64,000 nt of DNA from Candidatus Omnitrophota bacterium. GTDB lineage: Bacteria > Omnitrophota > Gorgyraeia > B26-G9. The stretch spans positions 176-64,175 of the forward strand of contig JAHIOQ010000032.1 in NCBI GenBank assembly GCA_018895275.1, written 5' to 3'. How positions within the stretch are numbered: the stretch's first letter is position 1; each line of letters begins with the position of its first letter. This document shows, one piece after another, positions 1-39,536 of the stretch. The position numbers and the translations under genes are program-made. A model generated the notes under the pieces. The model saw only the letters and a program-made list of their open reading frames with translations, made no database searches and was not told the origin of the DNA.

Positions 1-36
1 TAATGGGGGGCGCCGCGTTAGAGGGAAATCTCTAAC

Positions 37-188
37 GGGGCAAACCATTCGAAAGGATGGGACGGGCAGTAAATGCCCTTCTGAGAACAATCAGAAGCAA
101 AGCCGCAAACCTACGTTAGCTCATAGCTCATAGCTCATAGCTCATAGCAGAAACCAAGATCTAAGTAGGTGGTTGGGTTACCGAATGG
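37..188 (+). promoter_or_regulatory. candidate c-di-GMP-I (GEMM-I)-like riboswitch aptamer in the leader of the 289..2760 gene
   Basis: Collinear GEMM-I signature strings: GGCAAACC (39-46), ATTC-GAAA-GGAT tetraloop hairpin (47-58), GGGACG (59-64), GCAAAGCC (97-104), and GTAGGTGGTTGGGTTACCGAATGG (165-188). These closely match my recollection of the V. cholerae Vc2 aptamer. Atypical insertions lie at 65-96 and 120-160. Not verified by a covariance model. Confidence 0.55.
118..148. repeat. AGCTCAT heptanucleotide microsatellite, 4 perfect copies plus AGC
   Basis: Direct reading gives AGCTCAT x4 at 118-145, then AGC. The array lies between ACCTACGTTAG (109-119) and CTAAGTAGGT (161-170), which can pair with each other. 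Confidence 0.95.
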
Positions 189-194
189 AGAGTT

Positions 195-211
195 AGCTGA
201 TAGCTCATAGC
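195..211. repeat. short heptamer array AGCTGAT AGCTCAT AGC
   Basis: Direct reading. It is a degenerate member of the same heptamer family. Confidence 0.9.
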
Positions 212-240
212 AAGAGCTAAAAGATAACTGAAATAAACCA

Positions 241-277
241 GCCTGTTCTCAGAAAAACGAGAACAGGCCTTTTTATT
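241..277 (+). terminator. rho-independent terminator-like hairpin immediately upstream of the 289 start codon (likely attenuator)
   Basis: Perfect 10-bp stem GCCTGTTCTC (241-250) / GAGAACAGGC (259-268) followed by CTTTTTATT. The 5' arm is also complementary to 79-89. Confidence 0.7.
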
Positions 278-288
278 GGGATAAAAAA

Positions 289-2760
289 ATGATGAAAATA
301 AAAAGTAATAGTAGACAAAAAATAATGAACCTGCTGGTTGGCGCAGGTATAATAATTTTTTCAGCTGCGATTAATGTCTATGCTGCCAACCAAATGTCCG
401 CGGATAGTTATTTGTTTACGGTTATCGATGACAATACTCCGCCGGTTATCGACAGATGTTTGCCGGCCGCTGCAGGCGCTAATGTATCGCGCAGCAGTAA
501 TATCAAATTTTCGATCACGGATGATTTTTCCGGAGTGGATAGCTCTACGATAAATATTTCCGTAGGGACGACGCCTATCGTCGTTGACGGGGTAATCCGG
601 ACATATGTGAATGGCCAAGGCGATACAGTGGAATACGATGTTAAGATCGTAGAAAAATCCGCGAAGGAATATGTGGTTGTTTATGATCGGGTGGAATATT
701 TCAATTATGAAGAAAATGTTACGGTTTCCGTTTCCGCTAGCGATGTCCGGGGTAATGCGATGGGGACAAGTTCTTATTTGTTTAAGGTTCAGAACTTTGT
801 TCACGGTTCGGTTAAGTCCTTATCCGGCAAGAGAAATGCATCATCTGTCCTGGTTGAGCAAGAACAGGATAATTCCTGTGTTGTAGTTTCCGATAACGGT
901 AAGAATGTTTATATCGTATGGGAAGAGGTTGTCTCCGGATACTGGGATATCTATTGCGCGGAATCTGCGGATTTTGGCGAAAGCTTTCTGAACGTAATTA
1001 AGGTAAACGGAAATGAGGATAATGTCGACCACCGTTATCCGGATGCGGCAATCGATGCTTCCGGTAATGTGTATGTGGTATGGCAGCAGCGCAGCGGTGT
1101 TAACGATTGGGATATATATGTCGCGCGGCTTGAGAGTGGTGCGGCGGGCTTCGCAAGCGCTAGGCTTATTTACAATGACTCAGGCGCAAGTAATCAGACC
1201 CGGCCTTCGATTGCCGTCGGCCCCGCGCTTACGGATGACGGAGATAGTGATACTGTGGAGCCGGCGACCGTGTATGTTTGCTGGCTGGACGATAAGGCCG
1301 GTATAGATATGGTTTATTATACCAGAACAACCGCCGATTACGCGGATGAATGGGATGAATTTGTCGGTATGGCATTAAGGATTGATGATGACCGTTGGCC
1401 GCAGTTATGCGCGGATCCGAGGATAAGGTTAGATGACTCCGGCCGTATATTTGCTGCCTGGAGAGGGCAAAATCAGGATTCCACGTCAAGTATTTATTTT
1501 GATACGGCGGCCGCAACAAGTGTTGACGCGGGAGAAAATTTCGGTGTGGATACGATAGTAAGCGATGGGACGGCTAACGGTAAAGGCCCGGACTTAGAGG
1601 TTTCTCAAACCGGCAGTATTGTTTATGTGTTGTGCAAAAAACTAACCGGAACAGAGGCGAATTTGCTTCTTTATTGCTATAACTATAATCAGGGTTTGGG
1701 AGTTTATGAGCTGGACGGTAGTTACCAGGTGAATGATGCGGCATTGTCTGCGGATACGTTGTTGGAATATGCCCTGAAGATAAATAATAACAACGATGTT
1801 TTTGTGGCCTGGAGCGGAAAACAGGGAGATTCCTGCGTAATTAATTTAGCGGGCGCGCTGCATACGGATTATCAGTTTGAAGATTACACGCAGTTTGCAA
1901 CCGGAGGACAGCAATTCAGGCCGGCATTGGCGACGGATATAGAGGGCAATCACTTTTTTGTCACCTGGACGGATGATCGGAATCTGCAGAATGAAGTCTG
2001 CTTTTGCCGGAATACCTTTATTACGACGGATGAGATCATCTCTGAAGGGGTAGATAGCAATACCGGCGGGCAGGTAAACGTAAGCAGTGGGGATATCTCC
2101 GGAGCAGGGATTGATGTCTCTGCGGATGCGATGGAGACGCCTCTGCAGATTACGATTGCTGAAGTTGTTGCTCCTCCGGCGGATGCCGCGGATATGAGCA
2201 GTGTAGGGCCGGTTGTTGATTTCGGGCCGGGCGGTACGATCTTTAACAGTAACGTTACGATTAGTCTGCCGTATTCGGAGCTTTCCGTGACTGATGCCGG
2301 TATTAACGAGGCATCACTAAAGGTGTACTATTATAATCTTAGCGCCTCGGCATGGGAGCTTGTGAGCGGCGCCGTAGTCGATCCGGCGCGCAATGTTGTC
2401 AGCGTGGCGACCAACCATTTTTCCATGTATGTTGTGGCTGGAACAGCAGAATTAGGCGACGACAGTCCTCCGGATGACATTGTGCCCCCGGCGTCTGTAT
2501 CCAGCAGCAGCAGCAGCAGCGGCGGATGTTTTATCGCCACTGCGGCATTTGGAACAAAAATGGCCAAGGAAGTCAGGAGCTTATGTGAGTTCAGGGACAG
2601 GTACCTCTTGAAGAATACTTTCGGCAGTGCCTTTGTGCGGTTCTATTATCGTAATAGCCCACCGATAGCGGACTATATCGCGAAAAAAGAAAGGCTAAAA
2701 CGTGTAATCAGGGCTTGTTTAAGGCCGCTGATAATTTTTAGCCGGGCAATATGCGGGTAG
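289..2760 (+). CDS. secreted or surface repeat protein (beta-propeller-like W-motif repeats) with a C-terminal Cys-Phe-Ile box domain
   Basis: 823-aa ORF with an N-terminal hydrophobic signal/anchor ([18 protein letters not shown]). It has spaced repeats [36 protein letters not shown] and FFVTWTDD. A Ser run is followed by [37 protein letters not shown] at the C-terminus. Confidence 0.85.
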
Positions 2761-2773
2761 CGCCATTGGCGCT

Positions 2774-2843
2774 GGCTGATGGCTCGTGGCTCATAGCTCA
2801 TAGCTCATAGCTCATAGCTCATAGCTCATAGCTCATAGCTCAT
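2774..2843. repeat. heptanucleotide microsatellite, 10 copies (GGCTGAT, GGCTCGT, GGCTCAT, then AGCTCAT x7)
   Basis: Direct reading. The array starts 14 nt after the stop codon of the 289..2760 gene and lies upstream of the 2990 terminator, so it would sit in the 3' UTR. Confidence 0.95.
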
Positions 2844-2989
2844 GGAACGACACAAGCTACCCCGATAGGACAGAAGGCAGAAAAGGTGAGCGGTAACGAA
2901 GCCGGTATCGTCAGAAAAGGCAACGGTAAAAAAAGCCGTAGCTCATAAGTAGGAATTAACCGATATAGACGGTAAGGGGGGAAGTGGAT

Positions 2990-3027
2990 GAGCTCGAGAA
3001 AAAAATCTCGGGCTCTTGTTTTTTATT
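2990..3027 (+). terminator. rho-independent terminator
   Basis: Stem GAGCTCGAGA (2990-2999) / TCTCGGGCTC (3006-3015) with one G-U pair, an A6 loop, then TTGTTTTTTATT. Confidence 0.7.
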
Positions 3028-4146: not shown

Positions 4147-4180
4147 AATTCGAGTTAAAAAAACAGGCTCCTGTAAGTTT

Positions 4181-4224
4181 CTTGTGTTCACACAGAGACA
4201 CAAAGAACACTAAGTTTTTTTATT
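4181..4224 (+). terminator. possible terminator after the exosortase gene
   Basis: CTTGTGTTC (4181-4189) pairs imperfectly with GAACACTAAG (4205-4214) and is followed by T7ATT. The loop is large (15 nt), so the call is weak. Confidence 0.35.
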
Positions 4225-4400
4225 CGACACTTCCATTTATAATTCTTGATATCCCATGTTTTCAACAATAATATCTGCTCTAAATCCCTCGTCAAACTTT
4301 ATGCCTTAATATTAAATTTACACATGTAACTCATGTAGAGAATGTAGAAGAGAAATATTTTGAGCCGGCTAATAAAATTAAAAAACTCCATTCCATAAAA

Positions 4401-4475
4401 CCTACATGCTCTACAGGGACTACATGTTAAAAATTCTACCACATTACCCGTTATAATTGTACCAATCCCATTTTC
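4401..4475 (-). repeat. left copy of a 75-bp inverted repeat pair flanking the sugar-transferase/PEP-CTERM cassette
   Basis: The reverse complement of 4401-4475 aligns with 7333-7408. About 65 of 69 positions are identical outside a roughly 7-nt variable patch. Shared strings are GAAAATGGRATTGGTACAATTATRACGG and TGGTAGAATTTTTAACATGTAGTCCNTGTAGAGCATRTAGG. Confidence 0.85.
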
Positions 4476-4810
4476 TATCATTCTCCGTGTCTCTGCGTCT
4501 TTGTGTGATTATAATATTAAGTTTTTAAATGGGAATCGATGCTTTTTTCTTCTCTCTTGTCCTTCAATGCCTTATATCTTTTCTTTCAATTCATTTAAGA
4601 ATGGACCGCAAAGACAATAATGTTGGCTAATTAGCACAACAGTTGTTTATAAAAATGGACAGAAATAGAGGGACGGAGCAAATATTATTAGTAGAAGTAA
4701 TAAAAGTTAAAACATTAGGTATGTTTTTAAACAAATTTAATTGCTTTAATTTTATATCGTTATAAATATGAACAGATAAAAAATAAAAAAACGCCTTGCT
4801 GCATTGTTTT

Positions 4811-4826
4811 TGGCACAAAAAATGCT
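4811..4826 (+). promoter_or_regulatory. sigma-54 (-24/-12) type promoter upstream of the sugar transferase gene
   Basis: TGGCAC-AAAAAA-TGCT has exact consensus GG-to-GC spacing (G4812 to G4824 = 12 nt). It lies 66 nt upstream of ATG 4892, and a sigma-54 activator is encoded at 10691. Confidence 0.6.
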
Positions 4827-4891
4827 GATAAATGATACTAATACACTAATACACCTTTATTAGAGTTACAACAATAAAAGGAAGCGTAGGT

Positions 4892-6589: not shown

Positions 6590-7210
6590 ATGAAAAGATT
6601 AATGTTAGCAGTTCTACTGGTAACAGGTGTAATTATGATGTCTCAACCGGCAATGGCCTTTACCTTTACGCTTAGTCCGGCTCAAATTCAACAGCTTTAT
6701 AAGACTTATGCTACGGGGGGAGCTGGCACAACAGTGTATGAGGTTGAGTCCCTATTTGACGGCGCAAAGTTTATCGGTAAAATCGCTAAAATCGGCGGTG
6801 GTAGTAGCGAGATACCGGAGATTTGGATTGGATCCACTGCGCTGGGGATTAGTGATTTAAGCGGGTTTGACGCGTACGCGTTAAATATCGGTAATTGGAA
6901 TGAAAATACATGGGAATATTGTCTATACTTAAACGCCGGAGGTTCGCCGGTGCAAAGCGGATGGACAGCAATACCGGTTGGCAGTTCTGCGGGTTTAATG
7001 CTGAATCTTACTACAGTATCAGGGTTAAATAATATCTCTGATATAGGTTTTTGTATTCGTGGTAAGGTTCCGCTTGGAACTCCCCGAAACCCTGATTATA
7101 CCTTTGAAACAGTAGTTGCTCCTGTTCCCGAACCGGCAACTATGTTATTGCTCGGGCCGGCATTGTTGGGATTAGCGGGTTTGAAGAGAAAAAAGAGTTC
7201 GTGCGCTTAA
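6590..7210 (+). CDS. PEP-CTERM sorting-domain protein
   Basis: Signal peptide (MKRLMLAVLLVTGVIMMSQPAMA). C-terminus VPEPATMLLLGPALLGLAGLKRKK. A strong RBS (AAGGGGGTG) precedes the start. Confidence 0.88.
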   Translation: MKRLMLAVLLVTGVIMMSQPAMAFTFTLSPAQIQQLYKTYATGGAGTTVYEVESLFDGAKFIGKIAKIGGGSSEIPEIWIGSTALGISDLSGFDAYALNIGNWNENTWEYCLYLNAGGSPVQSGWTAIPVGSSAGLMLNLTTVSGLNNISDIGFCIRGKVPLGTPRNPDYTFETVVAPVPEPATMLLLGPALLGLAGLKRKKSSCA

Positions 7211-7241
7211 TTGAATCAGGCTGTAGATAGAATAAAGAATT

Positions 7242-7291
7242 CGCTCAAGAGAGAAATGCGGTTTTTTTCTCTTGAGCGTTTTTTATTTTTT
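7242..7291 (+). terminator. rho-independent terminator after the second PEP-CTERM gene
   Basis: Stem CGCTCAAGAGAGAAA (7242-7256) / TTTCTCTTGAGCG (7266-7278) followed by TTTTTTATTTTTT. Confidence 0.75.
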
Positions 7292-7332
7292 AGGCAAGGT
7301 GGATTTTTAACGCTAGGTATGTGAAAATTATG

Positions 7333-7408
7333 GAAAATGGAATTGGTACAATTATGACGGATAGCCCTGGTAGAATTTTTAACATGTAGTCCATGTAGAG
7401 CATATAGG
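7333..7408 (+). repeat. right copy of the 75-bp inverted repeat pair
   Basis: See 4401..4475. This copy carries an in-frame stop where the left copy has the 60-aa ORF 4299..4481, which argues that the repeat is non-coding. Confidence 0.85.
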
Positions 7409-7418
7409 CCTTATCGAA

Positions 7419-7457
7419 TGAAATTAATCAGAAGAGTCCAACTCAATTAAGAAAGAA
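7419..7457 (+). repeat. 39-bp conserved intergenic motif, copy 1
   Basis: TGAAATTAATCAGAAGAGTCCAACTCAATTAAGAAAGAA matches 33956-33994 at 37 of 39 positions. Confidence 0.85.
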
Positions 7458-7628
7458 CCAAAATAATTTCGTCAGCGCCGAATTTGACAAAGAGCAGGAA
7501 TTAAGGTATACTACTTACTTAGTTATACTCACTTAGGCTATAAATAGCGTTTATTTTGCTGGACGCATAAACTTTAAACGTGTATAATTTTCAGTAGACT
7601 TAAAAATTATCAAAGCAAGGAGGCTGTC

Positions 7629-8096
7629 ATGATAAAAATTGAGTTCACTGAAAAAGAAAAAGAAATATTAAATTATGAGCGCTATCATCACCCCCATCCG
7701 CGCGTCCAACGAAAAATGGAGGCCTTATGGTTAAAAAGCCAAGGAGAATCGCGTAAACGAATCGCAAAATTAACAGGAGTGTCAGTTAATATTGTTACCC
7801 AATATATTAAAGAATACAAAGCAGGCGGTATCGAAAAATTAAAAGAAATTCATTTTTATAAACCGCAAAGTCAATTAAATGAATACATAATCACAATTGA
7901 AAATTATTTTCAAGAGCATCCTCCTGCAACCGTTAAAGAAGCGATGGCAAAAATTAAGGAACTTACCGGCATTAAACGCAGTGAGGTGCAAATTTGGAAA
8001 TTTATTAAACGCATTGGATTAAAATGTCGAAAAGTAGGCATGATTCCCTCGAAAGTCGATATTGAAAAACAGGAAAACTTTAAAAAAAAGAGTTAG
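7629..8096 (+). CDS. IS630-family transposase, OrfA (HTH DNA-binding part)
   Basis: 155-aa ORF with helix-turn-helix-like segments (RKRIAKLTGVSVNIVTQYIKEY; EVQIWKFIKRIGLKCRKV). It ends just after the slippery A_AAA_AAG at 8084-8090. Confidence 0.8.
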   Translation: MIKIEFTEKEKEILNYERYHHPHPRVQRKMEALWLKSQGESRKRIAKLTGVSVNIVTQYIKEYKAGGIEKLKEIHFYKPQSQLNEYIITIENYFQEHPPATVKEAMAKIKELTGIKRSEVQIWKFIKRIGLKCRKVGMIPSKVDIEKQENFKKKS

Positions 8097-8671
8097 AACC
8101 TCGTCTTAAAGAAGCAAAAAAAGGAACCCGAACCGTTTTTTTTGTTGATGCTGCACATTTTGTTTTAGCGCCTTTTTTAGGATACCTGTGGAGTAGGACG
8201 CGATTATTTCTAAAGGCTCCATCTGGAAGGCAACGGTTTAATGTTTTAGGAGCCCTTAATGCTGTTACGCATGAGTTGATTGCCATCACCAATGACGCTT
8301 ATATCAACTCTCAAAGTGTTTGTGATTTATTATGGAAAATTGCTCATTTAAACTTAAAGACACCTATTACCCTTGTGTTAGATAATGCTCGCTATCAAAG
8401 GTGTAATCTTGTTAAGCAATTTGCAAAGCAGCTTGATATTGAACTTCTGTTTTTGCCAGCATATTCACCGAATCTCAATCTTATTGAACGGCTTTGGAAA
8501 TTTGTCAAAAAGCAATGTTTGTATTCAAAGTATTATTCAGAGTTTGAAAGTTTTAAAAACGCTATCAGCGATTGTCTGGGTAAGACCCATTTAACTTATA
8601 AACGAGAACTTGATTCCCTATTGACTCTCAATTTTCAGATATTTAAGAAAGCACAATTTGTGACCTTTTAA
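8084..8671 (+). CDS. IS630-family transposase, OrfB (DDE catalytic part, reached by a -1 frameshift)
   Basis: The -1 frame is open from 8066. Translation KKELEPRLKEAKKGTRTVFFVDAAHF...LVLDNARYQ...LPAYSPNLNLIERLW shows the D, D, E triad pattern of IS630. The ORF track only shows it from TTG 8276. Confidence 0.75.
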   Translation, partial: KKELEPRLKEAKKGTRTVFFVDAAHFVLAPFLGYLWSRTRLFLKAPSGRQRFNVLGALNAVTHELIAITNDAYINSQSVCDLLWKIAHLNLKTPITLVLDNARYQRCNLVKQFAKQLDIELLFLPAYSPNLNLIERLWKFVKKQCLYSKYYSEFESFKNAISDCLGKTHLTYKRELDSLLTLNFQIFKKAQFVTF

Positions 8672-10485: not shown

Positions 10486-10490
10486 CTGGA

Positions 10491-10535
10491 CGAAGTCCGA
10501 GGGACGAAGTAAAACAACCGAAGTCCGAGGGACGA
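10491..10535. repeat. two copies of the 17-mer CGAAGTCCGAGGGACGA (ACGAAG-word repeat family)
   Basis: Copies at 10491-10507 and 10519-10535. A related string CCGAAGTCCGAAGGACGATCG lies at 33632-33652. Confidence 0.9.
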
Positions 10536-10572
10536 TCGTTCGTTGCGCTCACTAAGACGAAGGACGGAAATT

Positions 10573-10600
10573 AGCTCATGGCTGATGGCTCATGGCTCAT
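10573..10600. repeat. heptamer array AGCTCAT GGCTGAT GGCTCAT GGCTCAT
   Basis: Direct reading. Same family as 118-148 and 2774-2843. Confidence 0.9.
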
Positions 10601-10690
10601 AGACAAAGGATGAAGTAAACTAACAAAAAAGCTTCAAGCCGCAGGCTGCTGTTATCAGGGAAAAATAGAGGTGGAAGGTGTTTCTCATGG

Positions 10691-11884
10691 ATGAGCCGAA
10701 TTTACACCCAGGATTCGGATGGGAGGGTAGTCATGAGAACACATATCTTAGTTACTGATGAGGATAAACAGATAAAAATGATTATAGATAAAATAACGGA
10801 TGGTAACGCCAAAAACTTCGGGGATAAAACAAATACATGTTTTGAAGGAAAACGTAAGTTGCCTTTTGATATGCAGCGCCATAAGTTTCATACCGTAATC
10901 GGTAAAGATGAGAAGATGCAGAAGATTTATTCCATGATTGAAGCAATTGCCGATACTCCTTCAACGGTAATGATTTGCGGAGAAAGCGGTACGGGTAAAA
11001 GAATGATCGCGCAGGCCATCCATCAGGCGGATACGTACCGCTGCAATAAGCCGTTTATTGAAATAAGCTGCGGGGCGCTGCCGGAGACGCTTTTGGAAAG
11101 TGAACTGTTCGGCCATGTTAAGGGCGCCTTTACCGGAGCGATTAAAGATCGGGCCGGCAGATTTGAGCTCGCGAACGGAGGAACTTTATTACTGGATGAG
11201 ATCGATACATGCTCGCCGAGTTTGCAGGTTAAATTACTGCGGGTATTGGAAGAAGGCGGGTATGAACGGGTGGGGGATACAAGGACGTTTAAATCCGATG
11301 TGCGGATTATCGCGGCAACGAATCAAAATCTTGAAGAGCTTGTAAAAAGGAAGAGCTTTCGCGGGGATTTGTTCTGGAGGATTAATGTGATAAGTATTAA
11401 TTTGCCTCCGTTACGGGAGCGCCCGGGAGATATCTCGCTGCTCGCGAGTCATTTCCTGAATAAATATAACCTGATGCGTAAGCCGCGCAACGGAATGTTT
11501 ATTGAAAATGTTTCAGAGGAAGCAATGCAGGCGATGATGCTGTATTCATGGCCGGGAAATATCCGGGAACTGGAAAACACGATTGAAAGAGCGTGTATTT
11601 TGGTTAACACCAATACGATCCAATTGAAAGATTTGCCGGATTCAATCCGCAATAACAGCTGCCCGCTCAAAGAGGAAGCTTCGAAGAGCAGTTTTTCTTT
11701 AAAAGACGCTCTGAAGCACCCGGAAAGGGATATCGTGATTAATGCTCTGGAGCATACGAATTGGAATTGTACGAGAACCGCGGCGTATCTGGGCATTAAC
11801 CGTACGACACTCTACAATAAGATGAAGCTTTACAATATAAAGCGAAGCAAGGAAAAAGGATTTGACGGCAACGGTAATTTTTAG
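10691..11884 (+). CDS. sigma-54-dependent transcriptional activator (bEBP) lacking a full receiver domain
   Basis: AAA+ core with Walker A GESGTGKRM, the sigma-54 contact motif GAFTGA, and ELENTIERA. C-terminal Fis-type HTH (TRTAAYLGINRTTLYNKMK). The N-terminal region is only about 80 aa, with a vestigial HILVTDEDK string. Confidence 0.88.
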   Translation: MSRIYTQDSDGRVVMRTHILVTDEDKQIKMIIDKITDGNAKNFGDKTNTCFEGKRKLPFDMQRHKFHTVIGKDEKMQKIYSMIEAIADTPSTVMICGESGTGKRMIAQAIHQADTYRCNKPFIEISCGALPETLLESELFGHVKGAFTGAIKDRAGRFELANGGTLLLDEIDTCSPSLQVKLLRVLEEGGYERVGDTRTFKSDVRIIAATNQNLEELVKRKSFRGDLFWRINVISINLPPLRERPGDISLLASHFLNKYNLMRKPRNGMFIENVSEEAMQAMMLYSWPGNIRELENTIERACILVNTNTIQLKDLPDSIRNNSCPLKEEASKSSFSLKDALKHPERDIVINALEHTNWNCTRTAAYLGINRTTLYNKMKLYNIKRSKEKGFDGNGNF

Positions 11885-11920
11885 GATAATAATCACAAAA
11901 TTTAATTGAGGTGTTGTTGA

Positions 11921-11970
11921 TTGAGGTTACTTTAGGTTGCTTGAGGTTCCTTAATGTTTCTTAAGGTTGC
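11921..11970. repeat. five phased decamers TTRAGGTTNC
   Basis: TTGAGGTTAC TTTAGGTTGC TTGAGGTTCC TTAATGTTTC TTAAGGTTGC with an exact 10-nt period. A further ATTGAGGTGTT lies at 11905-11915. Confidence 0.85.
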
Positions 11971-11994: not shown

Positions 11995-12023
11995 AAGATT
12001 TAGCCCCTACGGGGCTAAATCTT
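11995..12023. other. 13-bp perfect hairpin enclosing the helicase stop codon between convergent genes
   Basis: AAGATTTAGCCCC (11995-12007), loop TAC, GGGGCTAAATCTT (12011-12023). No adjacent U-tract on either strand, so terminator function is uncertain. Confidence 0.5.
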
Positions 12024-33630: not shown

Positions 33631-33631
33631 C

Positions 33632-33689
33632 CCGAAGTCCGAAGGACGATCGCTCTCTGCGTTCGCTATGACGAGGGACGAAAGACGAG
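33632..33689. repeat. ACGAAG-word repeat block directly after the leuS stop
   Basis: CCGAAGTCCGAAGGACGATCGCTCTCTGCGTTCGCTATGACGAGGGACGAAAGACGAG parallels 10519-10570. Confidence 0.85.
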
Positions 33690-33793
33690 ATAAAAGGTAA
33701 ACGGTTGCGATGCCCGCCTGTCCTCCTTGGAGGGTATCGTCAGAAAAGGGTAACGTTGAGCGGGTAGAAGCGAGTAGCAGGAAAAAGTATATT

Positions 33794-33810
33794 GGCTGAT
33801 GGCTGATAGC
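33794..33810. repeat. heptamer array GGCTGAT GGCTGAT AGC
   Basis: Direct reading. Confidence 0.85.
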
Positions 33811-33955
33811 AGAAGATAAAAGCCGAAAAAACTTAATTAACCGCCCGCTTCGCTCGATAAACGCTGATTAACGCTGTTTTTAAAATAGTGTGAGAATAAA
33901 AAATATATAAAATAATTTTGGACCCAGATTTTCGCTGATACTCGCAGATTATATA

Positions 33956-33994
33956 TGAAATTAATCGGAAGAGTCCAACTCTATTAAGAAAGAA
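33956..33994 (+). repeat. 39-bp conserved intergenic motif, copy 2 (22 nt upstream of comEA)
   Basis: TGAAATTAATCGGAAGAGTCCAACTCTATTAAGAAAGAA matches 7419-7457 at 37 of 39 positions. Confidence 0.85.
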
Positions 33995-34015
33995 TAGCAA
34001 AAAACAGGCAGAAAA

Positions 34016-34402
34016 ATGTACGAAGCAAAGCTTGAACAAAGAAGAGTTATTGTTTTTATCCTGAGCCTTGCGGCAATATCTCTGGCGCTTTCCTGGGGAA
34101 AAAAGAACCTGGCTGAAAGGGCGGATTCTTTTATCTACCTTTCTAATCCTCAAGAGAATTCTTCCGCTCAGGTTTCCAAAGAAACGCCTGCTTGCACCCG
34201 TGCTCCTGAGATTGTGAATATTAATACCGCTGAGGAATCGCAGCTTCAAACAATACCGGGAATCGGCAGGGTGATTGCTTCGCGTATTGTGGAATATCGC
34301 CTGCAGCACGGCCCGTTTACAAGTAAAGAGGACTTGGTAAAGATAAAAGGGATCGGCAGTAAAAAGCTTGCGCTAATCGAAAAATATATACGTGTAGAAT
34401 GA
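34016..34402 (+). CDS. comEA: ComEA-type helix-hairpin-helix DNA receptor
   Basis: N-terminal TM, then INTAEESQLQTIPGIGRVIASRIVEYRLQHGPFTSKEDLVKIKGIGSKKL. Confidence 0.88.
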   Translation: MYEAKLEQRRVIVFILSLAAISLALSWGKKNLAERADSFIYLSNPQENSSAQVSKETPACTRAPEIVNINTAEESQLQTIPGIGRVIASRIVEYRLQHGPFTSKEDLVKIKGIGSKKLALIEKYIRVE

Positions 34403-34870: not shown

Positions 34871-35004
34871 TTGAAAAAAAAGGGATTATGCAGATAATAT
34901 CGATTAATCAAACAACGTCCCCTTCGTCCCCCCTTCGTCCCATCTTGAAAAAAAAGGGATTATGCAGATAATATCGATTAATCAAACAACGTCCCCTTCG
35001 TCCC
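34871..35004 (+). repeat. tandem duplication: perfect 60-nt unit repeated with a 74-nt period
   Basis: TTGAAAAAAAAGGGATTATGCAGATAATATCGATTAATCAAACAACGTCCCCTTCGTCCC occurs at 34871-34930 and 34945-35004. It is followed by more CCCTTCGTCCC words up to about 35050. Confidence 0.95.
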
Positions 35005-35191
35005 ACGTCCCATCCCCTTCGTCCCAAACAACGTCCCCTTCGTCCCCCTTGGCATTGCTTTAATCGCAAGCCCATTGGTCTTGAAGTATGATTTTGAGAA
35101 TAAAGCGTTGAATGTTTTGCTGTATTTGCCGTTTTTGGTTAATCTTTTAATTTTATTTATGATTGCCAGGTCATTGGAATAAAAAAAACGT

Positions 35192-35243: not shown

Positions 35244-35543
35244 ATGAGTCTAATTGTAAGAAAATTATTTAGACATGGCGGCAGTTACGCGATAGATTTA
35301 CCAATGGAATTTATTAAGAATGCAGGTACACTTGAGGTTATTTTAGAGAGTACGCCGAATAGATTAAGCATTCGTCCTAAAACAGAATTAGATAGTATTG
35401 AATCAGACCCTCTGTTTGCTGAATTTATTAATGCGTTGACAGTTGATGCAATGAAACATCCGGAAAAACTTCATGAAGCAAAGAAGGTTTGGGATAAAGA
35501 ATGGGATGAGCTTCTTAAGGGGGTTACTGTTGATGAAGAGTAA
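35244..35543 (+). CDS. prlF: PrlF/SohA-like AbrB-fold antitoxin
   Basis: 99 aa. The N-terminal KLFRHGGSYAIDLPMEF looks like a swapped-hairpin motif. It sits upstream of, and overlaps, a YhaV-like ORF. Confidence 0.6.
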   Translation: MSLIVRKLFRHGGSYAIDLPMEFIKNAGTLEVILESTPNRLSIRPKTELDSIESDPLFAEFINALTVDAMKHPEKLHEAKKVWDKEWDELLKGVTVDEE

Positions 35544-35979
35544 CTACCTCTTGAAATACCACGATTTTTACTTCCTGCGTATAGCCAAACTAAAAGAGCA
35601 AGTAAAAGAGCTGCGTAATAAACTTAGTAATGAAGCATTCAGGCAACACGAAATTGTAAAGCTTGCTTATCGCATTCGTGAAGCTGATCAAGAAATTATT
35701 CCCCAGGATCCAAACCGGCCGGAATATCGCCTGACTGGCAATCTTAAAAAATATCGCCGTTATAAACAAGGCCTACAACGCTATAGGCTGTTTTTTTGTT
35801 TTGCAAATCAGCCTAAGATTATTCTATATCTATACCTGAATGATGAAAGGCATTTGCGCAAGGCCGGGGACAGGAATGATCCCTATGAAGAATTTAGTCG
35901 CCTTGTAGATAAGGAATGCTTTTCACACAAGCCTGATGACCCCAAAATCCAGAAGTGGATAAAAAGTTATCGTCCATAA
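35533..35979 (+). CDS. yhaV: YhaV-family type II toxin (ribonuclease)
   Basis: EYRLTGNLKKYRRYKQGLQRYRLFFCFANQPKIILYLYLNDERHLRKAGDRNDPYEEFSRL matches the YhaV pattern as I recall it. The start is taken at the ATG overlapping the antitoxin end. Confidence 0.65.
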   Translation: MKSNYLLKYHDFYFLRIAKLKEQVKELRNKLSNEAFRQHEIVKLAYRIREADQEIIPQDPNRPEYRLTGNLKKYRRYKQGLQRYRLFFCFANQPKIILYLYLNDERHLRKAGDRNDPYEEFSRLVDKECFSHKPDDPKIQKWIKSYRP

Positions 35980-38002: not shown

Positions 38003-38025
38003 TAGAATGAAAAGACCGCTGTGTT
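38003..38025 (+). repeat. 23-bp direct repeat, right copy (contains the comEC start)
   Basis: See 34395..34417. Confidence 0.9.
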
Positions 38026-39536
38026 TTATATGTATAAGTGTGATTGCCGGGATCCTTAGCGCGGACCTCTTTTGGGTTTCGTTTCGAGCGCTTATCCCGG
38101 CTTTGGCGGTGCTGATTGCCGGCTTATGGTTTTACCTGCGAAATAGCCGTTTATTCTTTGTTTTCCTTTTTTTTGCTTCTTTTACCGTGGGTATGTGCCT
38201 GGTGGTTAATTCCCGCACTTTAGCGCCGGACCATATCGCCAAATTTACCCCGGCTAAGGGCAAAGAGGTGACGTTAAAGGGCCGCGTAGTTTCAGAGCCG
38301 GAGCAGAGAAAGAATAGAGATATATTTCTGCTCGAAGCGGAAACAGTCGAGATGAACTCTAAGGTATCTAAAACGCAGGGCAAGGTATTGGTTGTATTAT
38401 TCAAAGAGGTAAAAGGCATTGATTACGGAAAGGAATTGATTTTGCGCGGAAAGCTGTACCGTCCGTATGCCTTTAGGATTTCCCGGCGCTTGAATTACCG
38501 GGATTATCTGATGCGGCGCGGCATATATTCCATGCTGTCCGTAAGCAAAGCGGCCGGCGAAGTGATTTTTACGCGGGAAGATATTGCCAACCCTCTGCTG
38601 CAGGCTGCGTTCGTGCTGCGTAAAAAGATTACGGCAATCAACCGCGCGTATCTCTCCGCGAACGCGGCGGGAGTAATCAGTGCGATGGTTGTCGGATTGC
38701 GCCATGAGGTGCCTTCCTTCTTTAATAATTTATTGCAGCATACAGGGACAATTCATATCCTGGCCGTGTCGGGATTGCATGTCGGAATCATGGTGTTTTT
38801 GGTTATCATGGCATTGCGTCTTTTTGCCATGCCTTACCGGCTGCAGTATTCTCTGGCAATACTTATGCTTGTTTTCTTTTGCCTGCTTAGCGGAGCACGG
38901 ACTTCCGTGGTCAGGGCAACAGTTATGGCCGGTATCTTTCTTGTCGCGTTTCTGGTTAACCGTGATTATGACCCGCTTTCGGCATTGAGCCTGGCGGCAT
39001 TGGTAATTCTTTCCGGCTATCCGCTGCAGATTTTTGATGCCGGATTTCAGTTGTCTTTTTCAAGCGTATTATCTATTTTTCTTTTTCATGAAAAGATTAG
39101 CGCCTGTTTCCCGAAAAAACTGCTTAATCATAAATCGTGCGCTTATCTATTGAAAATGTTTGCCGTTTCTCTGGCAGCATGGCTGGGTACCCTGGGGATA
39201 ACCGCCTATCATTTTAGTATAATTACGCCGGTAGCGGTCATTGCCAATATGGCAGTTATCCCGCTGCTTTTTGTCGTCGTTGTAAGTGCGGTTTTGTTTC
39301 TTGCCGGGACAATGATTTCCCCTTTACTCGCTGCGGCCCTGGCGCTGAATTGTGAATTTTTCGTAAATCTCGTTTATAAAATAAACGCCGTTTTCTTTCG
39401 TTTGCCGGGAGCGTATTATTACGTTCCCGGATTTAAATTTGCCTATGCGGCGGCATACTATTGTGCGGTTATCATTGTTATAGCAGGCGGAAATTTTTTA
39501 GTACGCTATAGGCGGAACCTGGGGCGGCATGTTTAG
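38007..39536 (+). CDS. comEC: ComEC/Rec2 DNA uptake channel (OB/DUF4131 and competence domains; no metallo-beta-lactamase domain)
   Basis: 509 aa and polytopic, with TGTIHILAVSGLHVGIM and GFQLSFSSV. The length is about 250 aa shorter than three-domain ComEC. Confidence 0.82.
   Translation: MKRPLCFICISVIAGILSADLFWVSFRALIPALAVLIAGLWFYLRNSRLFFVFLFFASFTVGMCLVVNSRTLAPDHIAKFTPAKGKEVTLKGRVVSEPEQRKNRDIFLLEAETVEMNSKVSKTQGKVLVVLFKEVKGIDYGKELILRGKLYRPYAFRISRRLNYRDYLMRRGIYSMLSVSKAAGEVIFTREDIANPLLQAAFVLRKKITAINRAYLSANAAGVISAMVVGLRHEVPSFFNNLLQHTGTIHILAVSGLHVGIMVFLVIMALRLFAMPYRLQYSLAILMLVFFCLLSGARTSVVRATVMAGIFLVAFLVNRDYDPLSALSLAALVILSGYPLQIFDAGFQLSFSSVLSIFLFHEKISACFPKKLLNHKSCAYLLKMFAVSLAAWLGTLGITAYHFSIITPVAVIANMAVIPLLFVVVVSAVLFLAGTMISPLLAAALALNCEFFVNLVYKINAVFFRLPGAYYYVPGFKFAYAAAYYCAVIIVIAGGNFLVRYRRNLGRHV

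Follow-up and report, generated by a model that had tools for sequence, protein, structure and literature searches.

AGCTCAT arrays beside an Omnitrophota surface-protein gene are a case of the known intergenic heptanucleotide repeats

In the window, by which we mean the whole 64,000-nt stretch of Candidatus Omnitrophota DNA analyzed here, tandem copies of the heptanucleotide AGCTCAT bracket a surface-protein gene, as the first-pass annotation had pointed out: they are found at 118–208, upstream of the ATG at 289, and again at 2774–2843, past the stop codon. This raises the question of whether the arrays are a dedicated switch of the gene they flank or repeats of a more general kind. Nothing marks them as such a switch, and this role is not supported. 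The AGCTCAT arrays are a case in Omnitrophota of the known class of intergenic heptanucleotide repeats, the cause of which is still unexplained. They are non-coding and co-oriented with genes, and their units are shared across genomes; in relatives, heptamers of unrelated sequence take their place at the same sites.

The window contains five (RGCTSRT)n arrays, all on the plus strand and all intergenic, and each of the five RGCTSAT-type arrays previously listed for it was recovered. Four AGCTCAT units occupy 118–145 (117–148, 4.6 copies and 100% matches by TRF), and a two-unit array, AGCTGAT AGCTCAT, follows at 195–208 between a riboswitch aptamer and its terminator, within a small predicted hairpin (TTAGCT...AGCTAA). 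The array at 2774–2843, in the 3′ UTR of the surface-protein gene, comprises 10 units, namely GGCTGAT, GGCTCGT and GGCTCAT and then seven perfect AGCTCAT copies. The other two arrays are AGCTCAT GGCTGAT GGCTCAT GGCTCAT at 10573–10600 and two copies of GGCTGAT at 33794–33807. At the two largest arrays TRF counts 4.6 and 7.9 perfect tandem copies. A two-unit probe with up to two mismatches matches 13 times, compared to 0.28 matches expected from shuffles, and the single AGCTCAT heptamer occurs 20 times where 6.2 occurrences are expected. The arrays are non-coding, and UAG recurs in all three plus-strand frames. Stop codons in all frames were rejected as a selected property of the units, with counts of 64 of 111 units on the plus strand and 60 of 111 on the minus strand.

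Two of the arrays are parts of longer heptad patchworks on the plus strand. The first, at 10488–10600 in the spacer between a TPR gene and a sigma-54 activator gene, consists of GGACGAA/GTCCGAG units followed by the RGCTSAT array; the second, at 33632–33807 after leuS, holds a module of family D12 and the two GGCTGAT copies. Lag-7 identity reaches 42% at 10486–10690 and 44% at 33631–33832, in both cases from GGACGAA/GTCCGAG-type units around the short RGCTSAT array. The module at 33632–33683 is 83% identical to 10518–10569 (family D12) and lies next to arrays both times. A further patch, at 34909–35066 (families D5 and D10), carries GGGACGA/AGGGGAC heptad arrays whose purine-rich strand is the minus strand. 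A tandem duplication of 74 nt contains these arrays, and the patch runs opposite to the other window arrays; its Pfam-matched neighbors (comEA and a YhaV-type toxin gene) are on the plus strand. Besides the surface-protein gene, window arrays thus adjoin the TPR gene and leuS. The distances from array end to start codon are 80 nt (208 to 289) and 90 nt (10600 to 10691), and no window array covers a ribosome-binding site a few nucleotides from a start codon. Among the loci studied, L026 is the only one with an array that ends about 10 nt before an ATG. No array is located in a promoter spacer or a reading frame. A sigma-54 promoter within the 10573–10600 array was likewise rejected, since by eye the GG-N10-GC spacing is not present.

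The flanked gene (289–2760, plus strand) encodes a CFI-box-CTERM surface protein of 823 aa. A protein from a Candidatus Omnitrophica MAG matches it at 100% identity, and the orthologs, at about 50% identity, bear the annotation CFI-box-CTERM. Downstream lie genes for the exosortase EpsH, a sugar transferase, two PEP-CTERM proteins, a TPR protein, the sigma-54 activator and a helicase. Most of this gene order, including the exosortase EpsH synteny, is kept in L121, L122, L123 and L153–L155, which are other Omnitrophota loci with syntenic genes. The 10-unit array begins 14 nt past the stop codon (2758–2760, plus strand), directly 3′ of a GC-rich plus-strand hairpin, AGCGCC-ATT-GGCGCT (2759–2773), that overlaps the stop codon and abuts the array. 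Further downstream on the same strand, an intrinsic-terminator-like hairpin of 10 bp (2990–3015) with a T run, together spanning 2990–3024, would end the surface-protein transcript. The array is thus located between the stop codon and this hairpin, in agreement with the 3′ UTR position that the first-pass annotation had assigned to it.

In this position the 10-unit array is predicted to fold on itself through AGCU:AGCU pairs, with a predicted closing stem of 2755–2761 with 2856–2862. The fold of (AGCUCAU)10 has a calculated energy of −18.1 kcal/mol compared to −8.1 ± 2.7 kcal/mol for shuffles and is built from 4-bp AGCU:AGCU helices in heptad phase, and it also appears when the arrays are folded in their sequence context. 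For the regions 10488–10600 and 33632–33807, predicted RNA structure is no better than that of shuffles (z −0.42 and −0.48, respectively). Stable RNA structure was therefore rejected as a general property of the arrays, as only the AGCUCAU arrays of the surface-protein gene self-pair. Pairing between the 5′ and 3′ arrays of one mRNA was also discarded, being too weak (−22.9 vs −15.3 ± 3.7 kcal/mol for shuffles).

The 5′ array lies within a putative c-di-GMP-I-type riboswitch aptamer with a heptamer insertion (30–188, plus strand), identified by a weak Rfam match and conserved blocks. The aptamer comprises a 5′ block, GGCAAACCATTCGAAAGGATGGGAC (39–63, plus strand), kept in all four loci examined, and a 3′ block, which in the window, upstream of the surface-protein gene, reads GGTTGGGTTACCGAAT (171–186, plus strand); across four Omnitrophota genomes, the blocks GGCAAACCATTCGAAAGGATGGGAC (5′) and GGTTGGGTTRCCGA (3′) are conserved upstream of four orthologs. 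A terminator-like hairpin (241–268) with a T run (together 241–277, plus strand), which ends 12 nt before the ATG at 289, would serve as the expression platform. As the 5′ array lies between the blocks at 39–63 and 171–186, it would form the apical part of the second hairpin of the aptamer, with a predicted closing stem of ACCTAC (109–114) with GTAGGT (165–170). In line with this, homology with three orthologous aptamers places the four AGCTCAT units in the apical loop of this hairpin, which upholds the earlier view of an array inside a riboswitch hairpin. With 25.8 bits, the Rfam match at 30–111 falls short of the gathering score (59), and the L123 ortholog leader passes the RF01051 gathering score (38.7 vs 35). 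The heptamer insertion probably explains the sub-threshold score of the window riboswitch, a point of relevance for annotation.

The orthologous leaders show what else can occupy this apical position. L121 shares the window design of aptamer, terminator and ATG, and carries CAGGTCG/CAAGTAG units opposite TAACTTG units at the apical position. In L122, one arm consists of TAGCGRA units and the other of AAACGCT-type units. In the hairpins of both L121 and L122, the two arms are heptad arrays that pair in heptad phase. In L123 the position is occupied by a short hairpin only, without heptads. The finding of different heptads at one apical site indicates a permissive loop that has been filled with unrelated heptads in three of the four genomes. 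An 18-nt stretch at the two-unit array of the window (195–208), GCTGATAGCTCATAGCAA, is identical in L123 at 8458–8475.

A similar replacement is seen at the 3′ end of the gene. Heptads follow the stop codon of the CFI-box ortholog in six of the seven syntenic loci (window counted). These are TAGCTCA-type in the window and L122, AGTTACG-type in L121 and L154, GTATTGC and then AGTTACG-type in L123, and CACAGAT-like in L155, with none in L153. In L122, the array, of AGCTTAT/GGCTCAT units, begins a few bases past the stop codon. The combination of a hairpin with an array, AGCRCC-NNN-GGYGCT followed by RGCTSAT units, is present in three genomes, i.e., in the window, in L122 at 9429 and in L123 at 8520 and 9331.

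Heptads are not restricted to this gene in the relatives. In L121–L123, 28 of 66 tandem arrays have a period of 7 and these hold most of the repeat bases, compared to one array of period 6 and five of period 8. Pooled intergenic DNA of L121–L123 and L154–L155 shows lag-7, lag-14 and lag-21 identities of about 38, 34 and 32%, respectively, against a baseline of 29%, whereas coding DNA shows only a 3-base period. L153 and L156 lack the 7-base intergenic signal, and across the window as a whole it is weak. Six genomes have 16 identical same-strand units in common, compared to 5.1 ± 1.3 in a composition-preserving permutation (2000 trials, maximum 12). The most widely shared unit is AGCTCAT, found in five of the six Omnitrophota genomes. 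The syntenic proteins of these genomes are 35–62% identical to those of the window, except for the conserved sigma-54 activator (69–79%). Identical stretches of 18–27 nt are also found between genomes at non-orthologous places. The longest, the 27-nt stretch TAGCTCATGGCTGATGGCTCATGGCTC, is shared by the 10488–10600 patchwork and L049, and in L123 a 22-nt stretch of this patchwork and a 19-nt stretch of the 33632–33807 patchwork are identical. The units in this library fall into more than ten unrelated families.

Across six loci oriented by the CFI-box gene, AGCTCAT-family arrays are co-oriented with genes in a ratio of 22:1; the ratio is 2:0 in L026, and L049 shows mixed orientation. In L123, arrays follow genes for Fic, ParE, an AAA ATPase and other proteins. 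Thus, the same units as at the surface-protein gene lie beside the TPR gene, leuS, Fic, ParE and AAA ATPase genes, and the arrays are not specific to the surface-protein gene. Composite segments of 95–145 nt recur within L123 at 83–94% identity with a module order that differs among the copies, and heptad-rich spacers of the relatives contain inserted toxin-antitoxin and defence genes. Integron attC sites after the cassette-like L123 genes were rejected, as a GTTRRRY core was not seen by eye. In the literature searched, we found neither the repeat sequence in a bacterial context nor a link between Omnitrophota and heptamer repeats.

Since 2007, and for cyanobacteria since 1990, it has been clear that the intergenic DNA of bacteria holds an excess of 7-base tandem repeats, for which there is no accepted cause or function. 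The STRR units of heterocystous cyanobacteria are CCCCAGT, TTGGTCA and CAACAGT, none of which was seen here, where AGCTCAT/GGCTGAT and GGACGAA are found instead. Units and phylum differ from those of STRR. The likeness lies in several lineage-wide heptamers that are dispersed intergenically and within operons, for STRR with unknown function. The arrays described here show the features of an STRR-like class: 7-nt tandems above chance, in non-coding DNA, with dispersed and lineage-shared units. STRR heptamers of Calothrix PCC 7601, Anabaena and Nostoc are cited in PMC4692102. Intergenic arrays of 2–26 units are also formed by GGGAATC in Xanthomonas and GGGGAYT in Nostoc (PMC4692102), which likewise vary in length and sequence at the same site between related species, with some inverted pairs capable of forming stem-loops (PMC4692102). 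However, those units are G-rich and quadruplex-capable, whereas AGCTCAT lacks a G run and self-pairs via AGCT.

According to the summaries in PMC4679880 and PMC4692102, the long simple-sequence repeats of many bacteria are most often built of heptamers, for which polymerase slippage is the suggested cause. The prokaryotic heptanucleotide repeats of Mrazek et al. 2007, as summarized there, show the same pattern of tandem, largely intergenic, above-chance repeats in multiple phyla. These summaries name neither Omnitrophota nor AGCTCAT, and the Omnitrophota units differ from the class they describe in being also shared across genomes and oriented with genes. What is new here is Omnitrophota as a phylum with heptanucleotide repeats; the kind of repeat itself was known already.

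As the array features fit this intergenic heptanucleotide class, we read the arrays as slippage-generated and drawn from a phylum-wide library. On balance, it is probable that the AGCTCAT arrays belong to a lineage-wide library of satellite-like heptamer repeats, born by slippage and kept where they are harmless. In the library model of eukaryotic satellite DNA, related genomes share short tandem-repeat variants that are amplified differently in each lineage; as that model describes eukaryotic heterochromatin and not bacterial untranslated regions, we use it as an analogy only. A lineage-specific structural or selfish repeat had been offered as the alternative in the first-pass annotation, and the recurrence of units across divergent Omnitrophota genomes makes it the better-supported of the two readings given there.

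Under the slippage-library reading, strand slippage, whether in replication or in transcription, would create the arrays and alter their length. For AGCTCAT this would be eased by the AGCT palindrome within the unit, through which one array can form a heptad-phased rod hairpin by itself. Arrays may move from one intergenic region to another through ectopic recombination or gene conversion, and they would persist only at harmless sites, namely gene spacers, the terminal loops of RNA hairpins and the DNA that separates a stop codon from the terminator. Any effect on the surface-protein gene would be a quantitative by-product of how long the loop or UTR is and of the weak hairpin rod; a dedicated on/off switch of this gene is not part of the proposal. 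Several observations call for more than local slippage. The units shared beyond chance and the 18–27-nt identities at non-orthologous places run counter to slippage of a purely local kind, the 22:1 and 2:0 co-orientation suggests selection or a mechanism that acts on transcripts, and the paired heptad arms in L121 and L122 require a further process such as template switching. The hmw system of Haemophilus influenzae is the nearest mechanism that has been studied, and by analogy to it, a process linked to transcription might explain where the arrays lie and how they are oriented.

The co-orientation, together with the shared vocabulary and the paired arms, keeps alive a second reading despite weak or negative tests, namely that transcribed, oriented arrays at many genes are a platform for an RNA-binding protein that reads them in a 7-nt register. 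Such a protein would control mRNA stability, termination or translation. Its models are HutP, which acts on XAG-N4, and proteins of the OB-fold, cold-shock or S1 type as proposed for the TAACTGA repeats of marine Beggiatoaceae. We consider this reading unlikely. It agrees with the sense-orientation bias of 22:1 plus 2:0, with the position of arrays in untranslated stretches between or beside co-oriented genes and with the units common to divergent genomes. The HutP site consists of three XAG-N4 elements (PMC2425495), and (UAGCUCA)n has an equal 7-nt register with one UAG per unit, so that UAGCUCA matches the form read by HutP (PMC2425495). TAG is also enriched among 111 units (29 vs 17 ± 3.7 expected). 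However, most other units of the library do not fit XAG-N4, and AG itself is barely enriched in the 111 units (64 vs 56 expected, z 1.8), which gives a HutP-like XAG-N4 code weak support. More than ten unrelated unit families would moreover need many binders or one of low specificity, unrelated units substitute for each other at one site among relatives, the 34909–35066 patch and L049 show the opposite orientation, and no candidate protein was identified.

The TAACTGA repeats resemble the window arrays in that one heptamer occupies many intergenic sites, is oriented with genes and is found also in distant phyla (PMC4679880), and an RNA-binding protein has been suggested as their reader (PMC4679880). 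These repeats are located a few bases before start codons, over the ribosome-binding site (PMC4679880), whereas the window arrays lie 80–90 nt or more before starts or past stop codons. A stronger form of the binding-platform idea, in which a conserved, strand-oriented heptad vocabulary with AGCTCAT as its most frequent word is maintained because dedicated machinery reads or writes it, through a protein of 7-nt register that governs the fate of many mRNAs or a templated process that deposits heptads, is one that we regard as improbable. If it were true, it would define a new class of cis-acting elements and could explain the bacterial heptamer excess.

The shared vocabulary, the co-orientation and the paired arms also leave room for a third reading, in which the arrays are modules of small non-autonomous elements of the BIME/REP, BOX or MITE-like kind, which would be copied between intergenic sites and perhaps between genomes. 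This would fit the 95–145-nt composites recurring at 83–94% within L123, the 52-nt module that recurs at 83% in the window with arrays adjoining both copies, the AGCRCC-NNN-GGYGCT hairpin with RGCTSAT units in three genomes, the 18–27-nt identities at non-orthologous sites and the toxin-antitoxin and defence genes inserted into heptad-rich spacers of relatives. In the aligned copies, however, neither defined ends nor terminal inverted repeats nor target-site duplications were seen, and their module order differs; gene conversion between arrays would look alike. A REP-associated transposase was not seen either, the sole window transposase being a split IS630-type gene away from the arrays. We therefore judge mobile elements of this kind distinctly unlikely.

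The first-pass annotation had proposed copy-number variation as a means to modulate expression and asked for a comparison of related genomes. Five assemblies of one relative (L123, L124, L125, L158 and L159) can be compared over about 11–12 kb; the locus differs by few substitutions and no indel, and none of about 45 heptad arrays changes in copy number, although minority alleles would not show in these consensus assemblies, which possibly stem from one population. Exact-protein look-ups returned no record of a second assembly of the window organism, and metagenomes scanned with a 32-nt sequence flanking the 10-unit array gave no match. That a length change was directly observed in no array also counts against the slippage-library view.

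The unchanged arrays of this relative also count against the reading as an hmw-type contingency locus, in which slippage of AGCTCAT in the leader or 3′ UTR would tune the CFI-box protein and give populations with mixed surfaces. In hmw1A/hmw2A of H. influenzae, an (ATCTTTC)n array in the transcribed leader of a surface-protein gene is likewise part of a long RNA hairpin (PMC12721329, PMC8262952), which in the 5′ UTR is cut by RNase III and sets expression (PMC12721329, PMC8262952), and change in repeat number requires transcription and the RNA hairpin (PMC12721329). Similarly, (AGCUCAU)n forms a predicted rod hairpin, the 5′ array is inside a predicted transcribed leader, an exosortase locus adjoins the gene for this surface protein, and seven perfect units suggest recent or ongoing slippage. 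The hmw loci are characterized by proven copy-number switching, RNase III processing, at least 11 repeats and restriction to one gene class (PMC12721329, PMC8262952), whereas the Omnitrophota arrays are widespread, short and partly in a 3′ UTR. The 4 to 10 units found here are fewer than the eleven reported as the minimum for natural hmw loci. As the same units follow the TPR gene and leuS in the window and unrelated genes such as Fic, ParE and AAA ATPase in L123, as the largest array is located in the 3′ UTR, and as the hairpin loop of the 5′ array holds unrelated heptamers or none in orthologs, a contingency locus is improbable. With arrays that are not tied to one gene and with no variation seen, their membership among contingency repeats is not supported.

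Omnitrophota offer a useful test bed for why heptamers are favored. Heptad-rich and heptad-poor genomes occur side by side, so that gene content can be compared between them, and the shared units that run with the genes are a further reason to choose this phylum. A conserved riboswitch with varied heptad insertions in one hairpin also offers a natural series for studying effects on RNA function.

The AGCTCAT unit is also found outside the phylum. A scan for (AGCTCAT)3 with one genome per species yielded at least 120 stretches in many phyla. Among the matches listed, Gemmatimonadota, Bacteroidota, Planctomycetota, Desulfobacterota and Chloroflexota are best represented, and Pseudomonas, Vibrio, Shewanella and Halomonas are among the cultured genera. 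None of the 123 arrays of at least three units in the 120 loci among these matches lies inside a long ORF, and the upstream gene shares the strand of the array 68 times and lies on the other strand 44 times, a modest bias. A special role of AGCTCAT as a cross-phylum motif was rejected: two control heptamers of matched composition are no rarer in viral contigs (6 and 16 stretches vs 5 for AGCTCAT), and the loci are rich in other heptamers. The presence of AGCTCAT across phyla therefore reflects the general heptamer excess. At the cross-phylum loci among the matches listed, 300 arrays have a period of 7, compared to 9 of period 6 and 37 of period 8, and most neighboring arrays are one-step variants or unrelated heptamers.

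Within the exosortase locus, the CFI-box-CTERM gene is preceded by a probable c-di-GMP-I riboswitch, which is kept in four Omnitrophota, namely in the window (30-288) and in the syntenic loci L121 (3389-3747), L122 (9802-9995) and L123 (9973-10084) of its relatives. In the window and in L121, the aptamer is followed by a terminator hairpin and then by the ATG; in L122 and L123, the ATG immediately adjoins the 3′ strand of the aptamer. The start of gene P0007 of L123 is probably misannotated, since the annotated position, 10001, is located within the aptamer.

In the relatives, toxin-antitoxin and defence-type genes are inserted into the heptad-rich spacers that surround the CFI-box gene, as seen in L121 (958-2347), in L123 (5312-9260, 13662-14897 and 16086-16448) and in L154, a further syntenic Omnitrophota locus (523-3012 and 6983-8038). 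These insertions comprise AbiEii/AbiEi, Fic, ParE, AAA_14/DUF4143, HEPN plus nucleotidyltransferase, and 23S_rRNA_IVP genes. In L123, a similar heptad composite and then a hairpin with a T run lie 3′ of at least two of the inserted genes. Far longer AGCTCAT arrays of 10-15 perfect units were found by the (AGCTCAT)3 scan in some genomes outside Omnitrophota (L031, L075 from a Gemmatimonadales MAG, L018 from Portibacter lacus, and L091). In these genomes, a stretch of 8 kb contains several arrays, which in some cases run in both directions, and Gemmatimonadales records represent the biggest single group among the matches listed.

In the relatives examined, EpsI is encoded within a few genes 3′ of the exosortase EpsH. 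A tblastn search for EpsI across the whole window gave no match, and the 745 nt which stand in its place (4147-4891) harbor no plus-strand ORF of at least 80 aa. The window also carries an inverted repeat with arms of ∼100 nt (4384-4485 and 7323-7425; 85-88% complementary), which encloses a 2.8-kb segment with a sugar transferase and two PEP-CTERM genes. It is adjoined by a split IS630-type transposase (HTH, 7629-8096; DDE_3, 8276-8671), and a third, partial copy, 95% identical, is found at 33955-33994 upstream of comEA. The repeats may represent insertion-sequence ends or the borders of an invertible segment.

The sigma-54 activator encoded at 10691-11884 lacks a receiver domain. When it is aligned to the ortholog from L122, its residues 15-23 match residues 1-9 of that protein; the alignment then restarts at residue 106, with 79% identity across the remainder. 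Judged from this alignment, the gene looks like the product of an in-frame deletion that would leave an activator without phospho-acceptor domain. The spacer between this gene and a convergent helicase gene contains ∼5.5 copies of the 10-nt tandem repeat GTTGCTTAAG (11916-11970), shortly followed by a hairpin, the arms of which pair at 11995-12023.

Genes encoding ComEA (HHH_3; 34016-34402), a YhaV-type toxin with a small ORF upstream (35244-35979) and ComEC (38007-39536) are located 3′ of leuS. A minus-strand ORF that overlaps comEA (33833-34309) is probably spurious. A perfect direct duplication of 60 nt with a spacing of 74 nt (34871-35004) lies inside the GGGACGA/AGGGGAC heptad patch of the minus strand. 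Moreover, a minus-strand region at 30902-30977 matches the Rfam tmRNA model over only 76 nt and with 48.1 bits, compared to a threshold of 47. The match comprises the acceptor and T-arm portions of the model, with 16 nt in place of the 304 central model positions. This region may encode a tRNA-like element or one of the two parts of a two-piece tmRNA.
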